Shown here: in pieces, positions 1,396-7,164 of the stretch
Layout of the letters: every line of letters starts with the position of its first letter
How positions within the stretch are numbered: position 1 is the first letter of the stretch
Virus record (IMG/VR): IMGVR_UViG_2639762982_000003
DNA: 7,334 bases
Direction: 5' to 3' (one strand)
Source: a virus
Taxonomy: Duplodnaviria; Heunggongvirae; Uroviricota; Caudoviricetes
Made by a program: the position numbers and the translations under genes
Notes under the pieces: model-generated
The model's input: the letters and a program-made list of their open reading frames with translations, nothing else
Told to the model about the DNA's origin: nothing
Databases searched by the model: none

Positions 1396-1575
1396 TCACT
1401 GCATACACTGCCGGATGCCATCAATCAGTTGGCAGGCCTGAGAAGCAGCGTCAAAAAACTGGCGCGCCTTATCCAGGCTAACGCATCCCGCCAATAAAAA
1501 AGGCACCAGTATCGCTACCAGTGCCCATTTCGCCGCCGTTCGCGGCATTCTGTGTGTCCAGTGTTTTCTGCTCAT
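1396..1575 (-). CDS. small lipoprotein, lysis-associated (possible Rz1/o-spanin-like)
   Basis: ATG at 1573-1575, 14 nt after the endolysin stop, with AGGTG upstream. N-terminus MSRKHWTHRMPRTAAKWALVAILVPFLLAGC has a positively charged n-region, a hydrophobic core and lipobox L-A-G-C (signal peptidase II type). Only about 29 residues remain after the Cys. The track ORF 1396..1647 is an N-terminally extended version. Confidence 0.55.
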   Translation of the reverse strand: MSRKHWTHRMPRTAAKWALVAILVPFLLAGCVSLDKARQFFDAASQACQLIDGIRQCMQ

Positions 1576-1589
1576 AACACACCTGGTTA

Positions 1590-1967
1590 TCAGCGTTTCA
1601 ACTGAAAGTGAGGCCCGTCTTTCAGTGTTTTCCAGTCCCCGCCCCATTCGATGGCAGTTCCCAGCTCTGCGGCAGCCTGCTTAAATGCCTGCGCGATTTT
1701 CTCGTACAGAGGCCAGTCCCATGACACCTGGCTGCCAATGTAGGCCACAACATCCACCGCATCACCGGTCAGGTGGCGGCTGTTCATGGTCTGGCTTTTC
1801 CCTTCCGCGACCAGCTGTTTCTGGCGATACTTACTGCGCAGGCCTTCCGTAATACCGAAATCAACCTCCGTCAGTTCCAGCGCACGGCGAACGACAGCAA
1901 CCAGCTGTGGTTTGACGCCCTCCAGATTCTTTTCGCTGCGACGACTAAATCTGAATTTACCCGACAT
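1590..1967 (-). CDS. endolysin, peptidase M15 family (phage T5-type L-alanyl-D-glutamate endopeptidase)
   Basis: Track ORF 1590..1973 begins at GTG; ATG at 1965-1967 has GAGGTGA just upstream. N-terminus MSGKFRFSRRSEKNLEGVKPQLVAVVRRALEL and the SRHLTGDAVDV zinc-binding motif match T5-type M15 endolysins as recalled. No signal peptide. Its start overlaps the stop of the upstream membrane-protein gene. Confidence 0.85.
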   Translation of the reverse strand: MSGKFRFSRRSEKNLEGVKPQLVAVVRRALELTEVDFGITEGLRSKYRQKQLVAEGKSQTMNSRHLTGDAVDVVAYIGSQVSWDWPLYEKIAQAFKQAAAELGTAIEWGGDWKTLKDGPHFQLKR

Positions 1968-3284: not shown

Positions 3285-3359
<75 letters not shown>

Positions 3360-3362
3360 ATA

Positions 3363-3438
<76 letters not shown>

Positions 3439-3440
3439 AC

Positions 3441-3517
3441 TGGACCGCCACCGGGGACTCGAACCTCGCACACTCAACTTAAAGGGTTGACGCTCTTTCC
3501 TGATGAGCTAGTGGCGG
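3441..3517 (-). tRNA. tRNA-like gene, anticodon loop CCUUUAA (UUU, Lys, in canonical register); non-canonical, possibly a pseudo-tRNA
   Basis: 77-nt cloverleaf: acceptor CCGCCAC/GTGGCGG, U8 A9, D-stem GCTC/GAGC, perfect 5-bp anticodon stem TCAAC/GTTGA, T-loop TTCGAGT, encoded CCA. Position 33 is C rather than the near-universal U, and the T-stem has an A-C mismatch. Confidence 0.5.
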
Positions 3518-3518
3518 C

Positions 3519-3594
3519 TGGTGGCCCTTGCTGGATTTGAACCAGCGACCTGGCGATTATGAGTCGCTCGCTCTCACCACTGAGCTAAAGGGCC
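3519..3594 (-). tRNA. tRNA with anticodon CAU, ileX/ileZ-like (tRNA-Ile2 read as AUA after lysidine modification, or elongator Met)
   Basis: 76-nt cloverleaf: acceptor GGCCCTT/AAGGGCC, D-stem GCTC/GAGC, anticodon loop CUCAUAA (CAU), T-stem GCTGG/CCAGC, T-loop TTCAAAT, discriminator A, encoded CCA. Closely resembles E. coli ileX as recalled. Separated from the next tRNA by 1 nt. Confidence 0.75.
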
Positions 3595-4478: not shown

Positions 4479-4834
4479 GCGCACTCCAGTTCTGTGATTT
4501 TTATCCCCAGCCGACCACCAGGAACAGGCAGTCCGCGCACAATATTGATTTCATCAAACTGCTCGTCGTCTATGAGAAGTCCGGCATGCGTCAGCGCATC
4601 CAGTGGTGCCTTCAGGATATTGTCCAGGTCGCGGCGGCGCTTATCCGGTGGCTCTGCAATAATTTTTATTGCCAGCCTTCCGGACAGGTTTAATTTCAAC
4701 CGCTGCTGGCGAACAATTAGTGCCACATCACGGCGATAACGCTCACCGACTTTTGATACAAAATATGTGTTGCCACGACGTCGCCAGTAAGTATTCACCG
4801 TCGGCGGATAAGGCAAAACAAACTCTATACGCAT
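4475..4834 (-). CDS. rusA: crossover junction endodeoxyribonuclease RusA (Holliday junction resolvase)
   Basis: 119-aa ORF with ATG at 4832-4834 and AGAGG upstream. Protein aligns by eye with E. coli RusA, including the catalytic RRRDLDN motif and a GGRL C-terminal region. Confidence 0.85.
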   Translation of the reverse strand: MRIEFVLPYPPTVNTYWRRRGNTYFVSKVGERYRRDVALIVRQQRLKLNLSGRLAIKIIAEPPDKRRRDLDNILKAPLDALTHAGLLIDDEQFDEINIVRGLPVPGGRLGIKITELECA

Positions 4835-4846
4835 CAGTAACCTCTT

Positions 4847-5968
4847 TTACCCGAGCACGCCGGTTGCAAAGGCGTGATCAAGAAAACGAAAAATTAAATC
4901 AACCTGGGAACCATGCTTTTCTTCGAACGCCAGCGGATCCGCATGAAGTTCGTTGTGATGTTCCCGGCACAACGGTAGCGTGAAAATATCGTGGGCCTTT
5001 GTTCCCATCCCTCCCTGACCGTGACCAATCAGGTGATGGGGATCGTCGGCTGGCTGACCACAACACGCACACGGCTGTGTCTTCACCCAGCGCGTATATT
5101 TCTCATTTACCCAACGGCGACGTTTAGGTCGCCTCATGAAAGATTCCGGAGACTCCGGATCAACGGTGATGCATACCACCGTCTTTTCCTGTGGTGGGTT
5201 CTGTTGCTGGTGGGCATGAGGCAACGGCGCAAGATTTTTTGTGCGCTGCTTCAGTATGCTGGTGGCGGTCTGCTCTCCCGGTACGATGTCGCTTTCGCGG
5301 TACAAGGAGCGGATTTTTTCCGCACGTACCCCCAGAGAACGACGTAATACTGCCTCCGGAAGCGCGTCCGCCACCTGATTGCAGACCGCCCACCAAGATA
5401 ATTCAGCCAGCGACAATTCCCGCTCCTGCGTGCCATTCATTGCATGGCGTATGACGTCAATCATCCATGCTGACAGGTTTTGATGAGCAAGTTGCCCGAG
5501 TGATTCGGATGTCTGGTCACGCAACTGGTTGTCGCAGTGCCAGCACAACACCATCGCGCTGGTACCGTAACGATGTATGACGATTTCACTGTGATGATAG
5601 TCACCATGAGGCCACTGGCAGGATTTGACATGACGCAACAGCCAGTCAGACAGTGCCCCAGCGCCGCCAGCAGCACGAATCACCCGCTCATCGCTGAAAA
5701 ATGGCAGTAATGATTTATCCTCCGCCAGCGGCTGGCGAACGGCAGGGACGACTCCGGACGGCAGACCGCGCATGCTTTTCGGTTCAGGCTCCACCAGCAC
5801 TCGAGGGTTATGAAATACTTGCATGGATTCACGGCCCGGCCTAAGGACCACCAGCCCGAGTTCCGGTACCAGAACAGGTCGAAGTAATATCCGCACGTTA
5901 CCTCCAGATCCGTTGCTGGTATGTGCGGGATGGGTGCGGTGGGCGTTCGGAATAAGGGAGCCTGACAT
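4847..5968 (-). CDS. DUF968 family protein (Qin YdfU-like) with C-terminal HNH-like Cys/His motif; start codon uncertain
   Basis: 373-aa ORF with ATG at 5966-5968 but weak RBS; alternative ATG at 5822-5824 (Met49). C-terminal region QPCACCGQPADDPHHLIGHG...LCREHHNELH is Cys/His rich and resembles a His-Me finger nuclease. Same position relative to hokD and Q as ydfU in K-12 Qin. The first 71 nt overlap the upstream ORF in another frame. Confidence 0.7.
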   Translation of the reverse strand: MSGSLIPNAHRTHPAHTSNGSGGNVRILLRPVLVPELGLVVLRPGRESMQVFHNPRVLVEPEPKSMRGLPSGVVPAVRQPLAEDKSLLPFFSDERVIRAAGGAGALSDWLLRHVKSCQWPHGDYHHSEIVIHRYGTSAMVLCWHCDNQLRDQTSESLGQLAHQNLSAWMIDVIRHAMNGTQERELSLAELSWWAVCNQVADALPEAVLRRSLGVRAEKIRSLYRESDIVPGEQTATSILKQRTKNLAPLPHAHQQQNPPQEKTVVCITVDPESPESFMRRPKRRRWVNEKYTRWVKTQPCACCGQPADDPHHLIGHGQGGMGTKAHDIFTLPLCREHHNELHADPLAFEEKHGSQVDLIFRFLDHAFATGVLG

Positions 5969-6176
5969 AGATTATCCAGTGACGATAATCGAGGCTGAGG
6001 GCTTTCTTAATCTCGTATCCGCGTCTGCGATAGTTATGAATTAGCCATTCGGCCTGTTCTTCAGTACATGGGTCATGCTGGAACCAGTCAGATTTGAAAG
6101 TGCGGGAACGCCGCCCGTGCCTGCTGGCAAAGACGGCAGAATCATCAGAATTGTGTAATTTGGTATCGTGCGCCAT
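5898..6176 (-). CDS. hypothetical protein (possibly Rem-like by synteny only)
   Basis: 92-aa product from internal ATG 6174-6176 of track ORF 5898..6257; the annotated first codon of that ORF lies inside a terminator hairpin. GC-rich and coding-like, but the RBS is weak and the 3' end overlaps the DUF968 ORF. Confidence 0.4.
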   Translation of the reverse strand: MAHDTKLHNSDDSAVFASRHGRRSRTFKSDWFQHDPCTEEQAEWLIHNYRRRGYEIKKALSLDYRHWIIYVRLPYSERPPHPSRTYQQRIWR

Positions 6177-6250
6177 CGGTTGTCTCTGCTGGCGCAGCAG
6201 GTGCCAGTTGTTCAGGCTGGCGTGCGAATTGTAAACCAGAATGCCAGGAA

Positions 6251-6273
6251 AAAACAAAACCCGCCGAAGCGGG
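6251..6273 (-). terminator. rho-independent terminator downstream of the lipoprotein gene
   Basis: On the minus strand: CCCGC-UUCG-GCGGG (5-bp GC stem, UUCG tetraloop; plus coordinates 6260-6273) followed by TTTTGTTTT (complement of 6251-6259). Confidence 0.6.
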
Positions 6274-6472
6274 TATGCTAAAACAAACTGAAAGTAATAT
6301 ACCGGACTTGTAAAGGAACGATAGAATAATTATTGGATTAAACCCTGACTCAATCCAGATTTCATAGACAACAACTACGGACTAATCATCACAGTCATGT
6401 TTGATAGACTTAGTCCACATTGGGTGAGGGTTTACGGCGTTTTCACTAATAATTTATCGTCCAAGCTATACA

Positions 6473-6865
6473 CTACTGCCCTGTTTTAACGAAGTTTTTA
6501 AAGGAAACAACTGCCTGATAGGGGTTTGGTTGACAGCCAAACATATTATCGCAAAAAGGCTTGATGAAAATTCTTGAGGATCCATCTTCATTTGGCATTT
6601 TACTCACTTGATAAGCGAGGAATGGACTATTTGGAGAGGGATTATAAGTGGAAATTAGCGTGTCTGTCGCCGTTTGAATTTTCCATGAGGAATTATTAGC
6701 CAACCAGAATTGCGCTCGTTTCCAATAAAAGTCACATTGCTTTTCATCATTACATGTTAGTGGCTTCATTGCTTCTGCTTTCAACGCTGGATCGACCTTT
6801 GCTGCACACCCTCCCAACATTACTGTTGCAATCATTACACCTGCAACTAAAACAAGTTTCTTCAT
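6473..6865 (-). CDS. secreted lipoprotein, AT-rich moron-like cargo gene
   Basis: 130-aa ORF with ATG at 6863-6865 and GGGAG upstream. N-terminus MKKLVLVAGVMIATVMLGGC is a classic SPase II signal with lipobox LGGC. The mature part has four further Cys in two C-x5-C pairs. AT-rich relative to flanking genes and bracketed by two similar terminator hairpins. Confidence 0.7.
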   Translation of the reverse strand: MKKLVLVAGVMIATVMLGGCAAKVDPALKAEAMKPLTCNDEKQCDFYWKRAQFWLANNSSWKIQTATDTLISTYNPSPNSPFLAYQVSKMPNEDGSSRIFIKPFCDNMFGCQPNPYQAVVSFKNFVKTGQ

Positions 6866-6920
6866 CTCCCTGCCCCATCAATAAAAGTTCGGTTCTCTAA
6901 TAACTAGAGTTAATCAACGG

Positions 6921-6938
6921 AAAAAACGCCGAAGCGGG
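6921..6938 (-). terminator. weak terminator-like hairpin downstream of hokD (degenerate copy of the 6251-6273 element)
   Basis: On the minus strand: CCCGC-UUCG-GCG followed by six Ts. Only 3 bp can pair, so function is doubtful, but the sequence is nearly identical to the hairpin at 6260-6273. Confidence 0.3.
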
Positions 6939-7008
6939 TTAAGTGCGGGTGCGTTGAGGATGCCTGACACATCAGAGGTGGCGAGGGATTTCTCCCCCGC
7001 CAGGTCTC

Positions 7009-7164
7009 TTACTCCTCAGGTTCGTAAGCTGTGAAGACAGCGACCTCCGTCTGGCCGGTTCGGATTCGTACCTCGCAGAGGTCTTTCCTCGTTACCAGTA
7101 CCGTCACTATGACGGTTAAACAGATGACGATCAGGGCGATTAACATCGCCTTTTGCTGCTTCAT
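7009..7164 (-). CDS. hokD: Hok family type I toxin (HokD/RelF)
   Basis: 51-codon minus-strand ORF not in the track (below its length cutoff): ATG at 7162-7164, TAA at 7009-7011, AGGAGA 9 nt upstream. Translation MKQQKAMLIALIVICLTVIVTVLVTRKDLCEVRIRTGQTEVAVFTAYEPEE matches the Hok/Gef family and essentially E. coli HokD as recalled. Confidence 0.9.
   Translation of the reverse strand: MKQQKAMLIALIVICLTVIVTVLVTRKDLCEVRIRTGQTEVAVFTAYEPEE

Follow-up and report, generated by a model that had tools for sequence, protein, structure and literature searches.

The stretch of DNA analyzed here, hereafter called the window, comprises 7,334 nucleotides of a Caudoviricetes record in IMG/VR (IMGVR_UViG_2639762982_000003) and covers a lambda-like E. 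coli prophage from the nin region to the lysis genes. Between positions 6200 and 7000 it matches a prophage of E. coli UMNK88 at 100% identity; this prophage adjoins potB and combines an HK97-type head with tail genes of the lambda type, among them J, Lom and a side tail fibre. Our subject is a 665-bp AT-rich cassette on the minus strand (about 6275-6939), which lies inside the intrinsic terminator after hokD and carries a single lipoprotein gene. Its GC content is 38.5%, compared with 54.9% in the left and 52.0% in the right flank. The cassette is preceded on the transcribed strand by hokD, which encodes a Hok/Gef type I toxin (7009..7164, minus strand; Pfam HOK_GEF, E=2.1e-23; the identical locus is named hokD in RefSeq). 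The first backbone gene 3′ of the cassette is a Rem-like open reading frame (ORF) of 92 amino acids (5898..6176, minus strand; annotated as a coding sequence in the identical RefSeq locus; PHROG 1212, E=5.8e-36). Read along the minus strand, the order is hokD, a repeat copy, a 61-nt leader, the lipoprotein gene, a 198-nt AT-rich tail, an intact terminator and the Rem-like ORF, followed by DUF968/YdfU, RusA, Q, four tRNA genes, two holins, an M15 endolysin and an HNH gene. A first-pass annotation of the window had placed an AT-rich segment between hokD and replication-proximal genes. The composition agrees with this description, as do the neighbors, hokD (7164..7009) on one side and the Rem-like ORF (6176..5898) plus DUF968 on the other, but the far side is not replication-proximal: its genes belong to the nin region and to late control (Rem-like, DUF968/YdfU, RusA, Q), and the replication genes lie on the hokD side.

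The cassette is bracketed by two direct repeat copies of 19 nt (6256-6274 and 6921-6939), which are 89% identical and share the exact 13-mer CGCCGAAGCGGGT (6262-6274 and 6927-6939). Two matches of this 13-mer occurred in 0 of 200 shuffles of the window; the repeat is beyond chance. The downstream copy, reading ACCCGCTTCGGCGGGTTTTGTTTTTTCC on the transcribed strand, is part of an intact intrinsic terminator detected in a terminator scan (6249..6274, minus strand), in which the stem at 6274..6259 is followed by TTTGTTTTTT. This terminator, made up of a 6-bp stem with a TTCG loop and a U-run (folding free energy −13.1 kcal/mol), is identical to the single terminator found where the cassette is absent. 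The upstream, hokD-side copy (6921..6939, minus strand) reads ACCCGCTTCGGCG-TTTTTTCC on the transcribed strand. Here, ACCCGCTTCGGCG is directly followed by TTTTTT, the 7 nt GGTTTTG (minus strand) are missing and the stem is down to 3 bp. No fold above that of shuffled sequence was obtained for this copy (−4.5 kcal/mol, z = −0.1), and the same degenerate form was present in 55 of 55 cassette copies checked in viral contigs. Two near-identical terminator hairpins had been proposed to flank the gene; the repeat is real, but only 6274..6259 is a terminator, while the hokD-side copy is dead, a crippled remnant of the hokD terminator. Judged from these sequences, the downstream copy is the sole working terminator of the pair.

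The cassette leader (6866..6926, minus strand, 61 nt) contains a GGGAG ribosome-binding site immediately 5′ of the ATG. No sigma-70-like promoter was detected on the minus strand between 7008 and 6866 in a consensus scan, which could miss a weak promoter or one for another sigma factor, and none was seen by eye in the leader. With a disabled hokD terminator copy in front of it and no such site between its ATG and hokD, the lipoprotein gene is probably transcribed by read-through from hokD or from early phage transcripts. At the other end of the cassette, the AT-rich 3′ untranslated part (6275..6472, minus strand, 198 nt, 35.9% GC) contains a 16-nt inverted repeat (arms 6339-6354 and 6419-6434) with a second inverted repeat nested in it. 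A second cassette allele lacks approximately 68 bp between the inverted-repeat arms; it was found in about 11 of 60 IMG/VR loci and in phage 606R7 (L003). A structured RNA or a miniature inverted-repeat transposable element in the 198-nt region was considered and rejected, as the region is not more stably folded than shuffled sequence (z = −0.87) and never occurs apart from the gene. No Rfam families were found in the cassette; sub-threshold matches to rsmX and isrK (E of approx. 0.8-0.9) were judged to be due to chance.

An empty site is present in phage vB_EcoS-813R8, in which hokD and Rem-like flanks of 97-99% identity are joined by one intact terminator. Aligning it with the window places both cassette junctions inside the hairpin. 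The junctions alone give no direction, because a deletion between the repeats would restore the empty site. If the cassette were ancestral to the slot and the empty sites were deletions between the two repeat copies, recombination within the 13-mer would recreate exactly the single intact terminator that empty sites have. However, the GC content of the cassette is about 12-16 points under both flanks, the cassette is the minority state (255 genomes versus at least 2532 empty ones, see below), a third, unrelated insert occupies the same slot, and homologs of the gene are found in unrelated slots elsewhere. Because of composition, frequency and the third slot state, insertion is favored over deletion, and an ancestral cassette appears highly improbable. 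The sequence comparisons thus support the view that the cassette is independently acquired accessory cargo, a foreign segment in a pre-existing terminator.

The distribution was assessed in 5426 complete E. coli genomes. The cassette was detected in 255 of them (~5%), always on the chromosome, and no plasmid copy was found. An uninterrupted empty site was present in at least 2532 genomes, and 759 contained an unrelated AT-rich insert of approximately 0.3 kb in the same slot. The slot is thus variable across related prophages (cassette, empty or 0.3-kb insert), and the three slot states mark the hokD/Rem-like slot as a cargo hotspot. In E. coli SCU-105 (L004, 1626-1950), where the hokD terminator is intact, the unannotated insert is about 0.32 kb long and contains, on the opposite strand, an ORF for a hydrophobic peptide of 28 amino acids (MENNKSAHYAPFLSVILFVLCCVWALFL). 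All cassette loci read, namely L001 (UMNK88), L003 and the 56 E. coli-type IMG/VR loci of L010-L069, adjoin the same Rem-like gene, and the hokD flank is the same in the 56 IMG/VR loci wherever that contig end is readable. The neighboring DUF968 gene varies from 82% to 100% identity across these loci; the E. coli backbones are mosaic. Constant Rem-like and hokD neighbors combined with a variable DUF968 identity suggest one ancestral insertion, which would have been spread by recombination among mosaic prophages. Carriers include porcine enterotoxigenic E. coli (ETEC) as well as avian and human clinical E. coli, and the lipoprotein is labeled as hypothetical in every RefSeq genome listed. Two loci additionally carry insertion sequences (IS), named here from ends recognized by eye: in L024 (approx. 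4589-5940), an IS10-like element about 1.35 kb long separates the 3′ region of hokD from the crippled hairpin, and in L010 (1-330), an IS3-family (IS629-like) end lies a few bases 5′ of the lipoprotein ATG.

The only gene in the cassette is the lipoprotein gene (6473..6865, minus strand), whose product of 130 amino acids matches PHROG 16082 over residues 1-130 of 130 (E=2.6e-84). The ORF and its translation confirm the gene as first described, including the lipobox LGGC and two C-x5-C pairs. The signal peptide covers residues 1-19, the N-terminus reads MKKLVLVAGVMIATVMLGG-C20-AAKVDP..., and the predicted acylated residue is Cys20 (codon 6808-6806), leaving a mature protein of about 110 amino acids. 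Glycine at position −2 is a slight departure from the strict lipobox pattern [LVI][ASTVI][GAS]C; the motif nevertheless counts as a lipobox. The mature part contains the two cysteine pairs, C38-x5-C44 and C105-x5-C111, and its conserved residues are C38, C44, C105, C111, W48 and W54. In Enterobacterales, the absence of Asp at position +2 predicts outer-membrane sorting (Lol-avoidance rule). The +2 residue of the window protein is Ala, and an outer-membrane location is predicted. Compared with five homologs from other genera, the proportion of nonsynonymous differences (pN) is 0.13-0.22 and that of synonymous differences (pS) is 0.78-0.91, the latter being saturated. By this comparison, the gene is real and under strong purifying selection. 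Structure prediction with AlphaFold2 (90 sequences) gave a mean predicted local distance difference test score (pLDDT) of 93.1 and a predicted template modeling score (pTM) of 0.81, with all five models at or above 89.8. The predicted alpha+beta topology consists of a helix, a strand, a long helix, four strands and a helix, and an earlier model from 12 sequences was the same. We are confident about the anatomy of the element as a cargo cassette with a phage-borne, predicted outer-membrane lipoprotein.

Relatives of the protein were searched for in several collections. A word-indexed search yielded 16 close relatives, all from Enterobacterales. A hidden Markov model (HMM) search of 1.84 billion cluster representatives gave 1141 matches at E≤1e-3 and 532 at E≤1e-10, i.e., more than 1100 family clusters as defined at 50% identity. 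These are spread over Alpha-, Beta- and Gammaproteobacteria, and most are lipoproteins of 125-135 amino acids. In both family alignments (62 and 90 sequences), C20, C38, C44 and C105 never vary. Residues W48 and C111 show no variation among the 90 sequences and very little among the 62, and W54 is nearly invariant only among the 62. The lipobox cysteine is present in 62/62 and 90/90 aligned members, with LAGC or LSGC as the commonest lipobox, and the +2 residue of the 62 members is Ala in 54, Val in 4, Asn in 2, and Ser and Ile in one each, but never Asp. PHROG 16082, a phage family for which no function is assigned, is also matched by the Pseudomonas prophage homolog (E=1.4e-28).

The protein had not been recognized in the first-pass annotation, and profile searches agree with this. 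No Pfam or NCBIfam family matched the window protein at threshold, the 62 relatives gave PDZ only, in fused members, and 0 families of PADLOC-DB v2 matched the window protein at E≤0.1. As no Pfam, NCBIfam or PADLOC family matched, the protein is not Bor, Llp or a listed defense protein. Sequence profile searches of the PDB returned only PDZ or signal-peptide matches and no relative of this domain, despite the confidently predicted fold. Pattern scans of 185,579 species-representative genomes detected 0 and 2 relatives, which indicates a sporadic rather than a core family, and no housekeeping homolog was found. Hence, neither universal presence at the locus (255/5426 carriers) nor a housekeeping homolog was observed. 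Some members have a C-terminal PDZ fusion (P0034, P0101, P0103, P0133, P0155, P0257), and P0117 is a tandem duplication of the domain. The 90%-identity cluster with this lipoprotein has 1137 members and an 87-aa fragment as its representative, and it also contains many 70-aa Hok/Mok proteins, which looks like a clustering artifact of neighboring genes. Due to this mixed cluster, the full-length protein is absent as its own match in the word-indexed search.

The genomic contexts of homologs were prophage accessory slots in 15 of 15 readable cases. Several lie in tail gene clusters: the Pantoea homolog between tail genes I and J, that of a metagenomic siphophage between M and L, those of two Enterobacterales viral contigs (L065, L066) just 5′ of I-J and followed by a second lipoprotein gene, and that of a Pseudomonas prophage (L151) between K and I, followed by a PHROG 890 lipoprotein. 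In L066, the ORFs of the homolog and of the second lipoprotein overlap. Within these tail clusters, the second lipoprotein belongs to PHROG 890 in L065 (6374-6784) and L151 (5409-5831) and to PHROG 914 in L066 (6332-6679). Other homologs are located in or near immunity regions. The Yersinia homolog is part of such a region, adjoins ParDE and is near SieB. In Achromobacter and in an unrelated metagenomic prophage, the homolog lies directly 3′ of an S24 cI-like repressor gene in the same orientation and is followed by a PHROG 14789 lipoprotein gene. The latter (L073, 6434-6979; L078, 6732-7238) gives a weak transthyretin-like signal and occurs in Betaproteobacteria-type prophages, 3′ of cI-like repressors. 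An alphaproteobacterial contig carries its homolog near an S24 repressor and an Imm_superinfect gene, and one further homolog lies in another prophage immunity region. The Plesiomonas homolog has RusA and an unannotated ORF of 193 amino acids on one side and the lysis genes on the other; the Phytobacter homolog is found in a prophage remnant, and one more in an integrase-proximal slot. The homolog and the second lipoprotein may form a two-lipoprotein module; the E. coli cassette has one gene. Several of these positions are of a kind expected to be transcribed in lysogens, and, by analogy, the contexts are suggestive, being of the kind where exclusion lipoproteins occur.

To place the element among known systems, we compared it with phage morons and with phage lipoproteins of known function. 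As in a moron in the sense of Juhala and Hendrix, the cassette is present or absent at one exact position among similar phages, deviates in composition, and consists of one cargo gene followed by an intrinsic terminator between backbone genes. Unlike a moron, it has no detected promoter of its own and sits inside a pre-existing terminator with a crippled copy upstream, so that it probably borrows upstream transcription. The earlier designation as a moron is therefore retained with respect to acquired cargo (empty sites, composition, other slots), but not with respect to own expression signals, as there is no detected promoter and the upstream terminator is crippled.

Among lipoproteins, Cor of phi80, N15 and HK022 blocks FhuA, and cor genes lie beside the tail-tip gene J. 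Like Cor (phi80, N15, HK022, T1) and T5 Llp, the window protein is a small phage-encoded lipoprotein predicted to reside in the outer membrane, and homologs of it adjoin J, as cor does. However, the match to the Cor family phrog_1119 (E=0.0071) covers residues 1-44 only, i.e., the signal peptide, and the mature protein is about 110 rather than about 60 amino acids long, with four conserved cysteines and a different predicted alpha+beta fold. T5 Llp is described in a bioRxiv preprint as a lipoprotein of the outer-membrane inner leaflet which binds FhuA (10.64898/2026.03.26.714494). When expressed alone, lipoproteins from the structural clusters of mEp phages exclude phages that depend on OmpA or LamB (PMC11893012). 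The genes for these Lpp proteins of mEp021 and mEp010 were identified by their lipobox and lie in structural clusters, a setting that matches several homologs of the window protein (PMC11893012). In contrast, a tblastn search of 50,697 phage records with the window protein matched two E. coli prophage-derived records only, which we take to mean that there is no detectable similarity to the mEp proteins, the collection not being confirmed to include mEp genomes. With lambda Bor/Iss, the protein shares its nature as a prophage-encoded, here predicted outer-membrane lipoprotein and as accessory cargo in lambdoid phages. Unlike Bor/Iss, it has no Pfam match, occupies a nin-region slot instead of one 3′ of the lysis genes, and has homologs in non-pathogens. 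Helix-grip-like lipoprotein domains, i.e., Francisella Flpp3 (DUF3568) and the N-terminal domain of BamC, are also among the closest known systems. By every sequence or fold test, the protein is outside the Cor, Llp and mEp Lpp families, while being alike in kind and setting.

Combining these results, we propose the following explanation, to which we assign a probability of roughly 45%: the element is a cargo cassette, expressed by read-through, whose product acts in exclusion at the level of the envelope. Read-through from hokD in the lysogen and N-antiterminated early transcripts in lytic growth would transcribe the lipoprotein gene, and transcription would halt at the downstream terminator, which is intact. 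After export, acylation and sorting by Lol, the protein would be located in the outer membrane (inner leaflet), with the compact cysteine-containing alpha+beta domain facing the periplasm. There, it would alter the envelope such that incoming phages are excluded, possibly by attaching to a conserved component of the outer membrane or periplasm that phages require for adsorption or DNA passage, as for T5 Llp, phi80 Cor and mEp Lpp. A conserved target is argued for by the presence of the family in three proteobacterial classes. Taken by itself, the proposed function of envelope-level superinfection exclusion is tentative, as it is based on context and precedent. Several points weigh against this explanation. 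The cassette junctions alone cannot separate insertion from deletion between the repeats, and the assumption of read-through expression comes solely from the missing promoter match and the crippled hairpin. Given the spread over three classes, the target of a strictly receptor-specific blocker would have to be very conserved, and no homology to known exclusion or defense proteins was detectable in Pfam, NCBIfam, PHROG or PADLOC. Further, PDZ-fused members exist, one of which (P0257) is encoded on a 4-kb contig without phage marks, so that a non-phage branch may exist. Literature searches using the RefSeq and UniProt accessions of the protein returned no papers.

Other functions were also considered. 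A predicted outer-membrane lipoprotein borne by a prophage could be a lysogenic-conversion factor aiding the host apart from phages, e.g., in serum or complement resistance, stress tolerance or colonization, similar to lambda Bor/Iss; the porcine ETEC, avian and human clinical isolates among the carriers and the Lom gene of the same prophage would fit. However, the missing Pfam match means that no Bor/Iss relative is present, a role in serum is unlikely for homologs in prophages of Pantoea, Phytobacter, Achromobacter, Pseudomonas and uncultured Alphaproteobacteria, and the repeated placement by J and by cI or sie genes points to phage-phage interactions. We therefore regard a conversion factor as unlikely. 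The same gene neighborhoods bear on a mainly lytic-cycle role, in which the protein would keep progeny off debris or aid tail or lysis functions, perhaps with no expression in the lysogen. No own promoter was detected, and the gene is co-oriented with lytically transcribed operons, both in the window and in the tail-cluster homologs. In contrast, two homologs lie directly 3′ of a cI-like repressor gene in the same orientation and others in immunity regions, positions presumably transcribed in lysogens. Moreover, the cassette is intact at 97-100% identity in many defective prophages, and the UMNK88 prophage keeps it despite frameshifted tape-measure and tail-fibre genes, which makes a role confined to lytic growth quite improbable.

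Nearly the same low probability is given to a periplasmic inhibitor or immunity protein, which would direct its C-x5-C loops against a peptidoglycan hydrolase or another periplasm-acting enzyme or toxin. Like T4 Spackle, such a protein would block the tail lysozymes that incoming phages bring, or it would guard against lysis from without. Ivy-type lysozyme inhibitors use a disulfide-bonded loop, and by this analogy a small, predicted periplasm-facing domain with invariant cysteines would be suitable; a broadly conserved target would also fit the wide taxonomic spread. Nevertheless, Ivy, MliC/PliC, PliG and Spackle gave no match in sequence or fold. Exclusion at the envelope remains our preferred function. 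In its most far-reaching form, which we consider doubtful, the E. coli protein would represent a large, uncurated, phage-restricted family of four-cysteine outer-membrane lipoproteins forming a new and widespread class of envelope exclusion factors. Their target would be a conserved outer-membrane or periplasmic DNA-entry component or a peptidoglycan hydrolase, they would often be paired with a PHROG 890 or PHROG 14789 lipoprotein, and the E. coli gene would be cargo without a promoter, which puts the hokD terminator out of action so as to benefit from transcription of hok.

Some further features of the window are reported for completeness. In a mechanical ORF list, the Rem-like ORF extends over 5898-6257, with a TTG start at 6257, and thus runs through the terminator. 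The start annotated in RefSeq is the ATG at 6176, with which the terminator stays intergenic. Four tandem tRNA genes (3288-3594, minus strand) are located between Q and the lysis genes; the UMNK88 locus has four tRNAs in the equivalent slot, annotated as Ile, Lys, Thr and Gly. An ORF of 83 amino acids (1396-1647, minus strand) overlaps the end of the M15 endolysin gene, contains the lipobox-like motif LLAGC and matches PHROG 7528, for which no function is assigned. It may encode a spanin-type lipoprotein. In the UMNK88 locus (L001), no coding sequence is annotated 3′ of the M15 gene, and the sequence diverges from the window about there, in the leftward direction.

While phage accessory outer-membrane lipoproteins are already known as a general kind, what is new here is one with an uncharacterized family. 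Independent of function, the locus is a clean natural example of cargo entry into lambdoid genomes, with junctions in a shared terminator hairpin and a weakened terminator left upstream. With a confidently predicted fold (pLDDT 93) and no close relative of solved structure, the protein lends itself to structural and interaction studies. If the family excludes phages, it would constitute a widespread class of envelope-level protection missed by current defense finders, since PADLOC gives no match. Its carriage in about 5% of complete E. coli genomes and in prophages of many Proteobacteria would then bear on the prediction of host range and on the choice of therapeutic phages.

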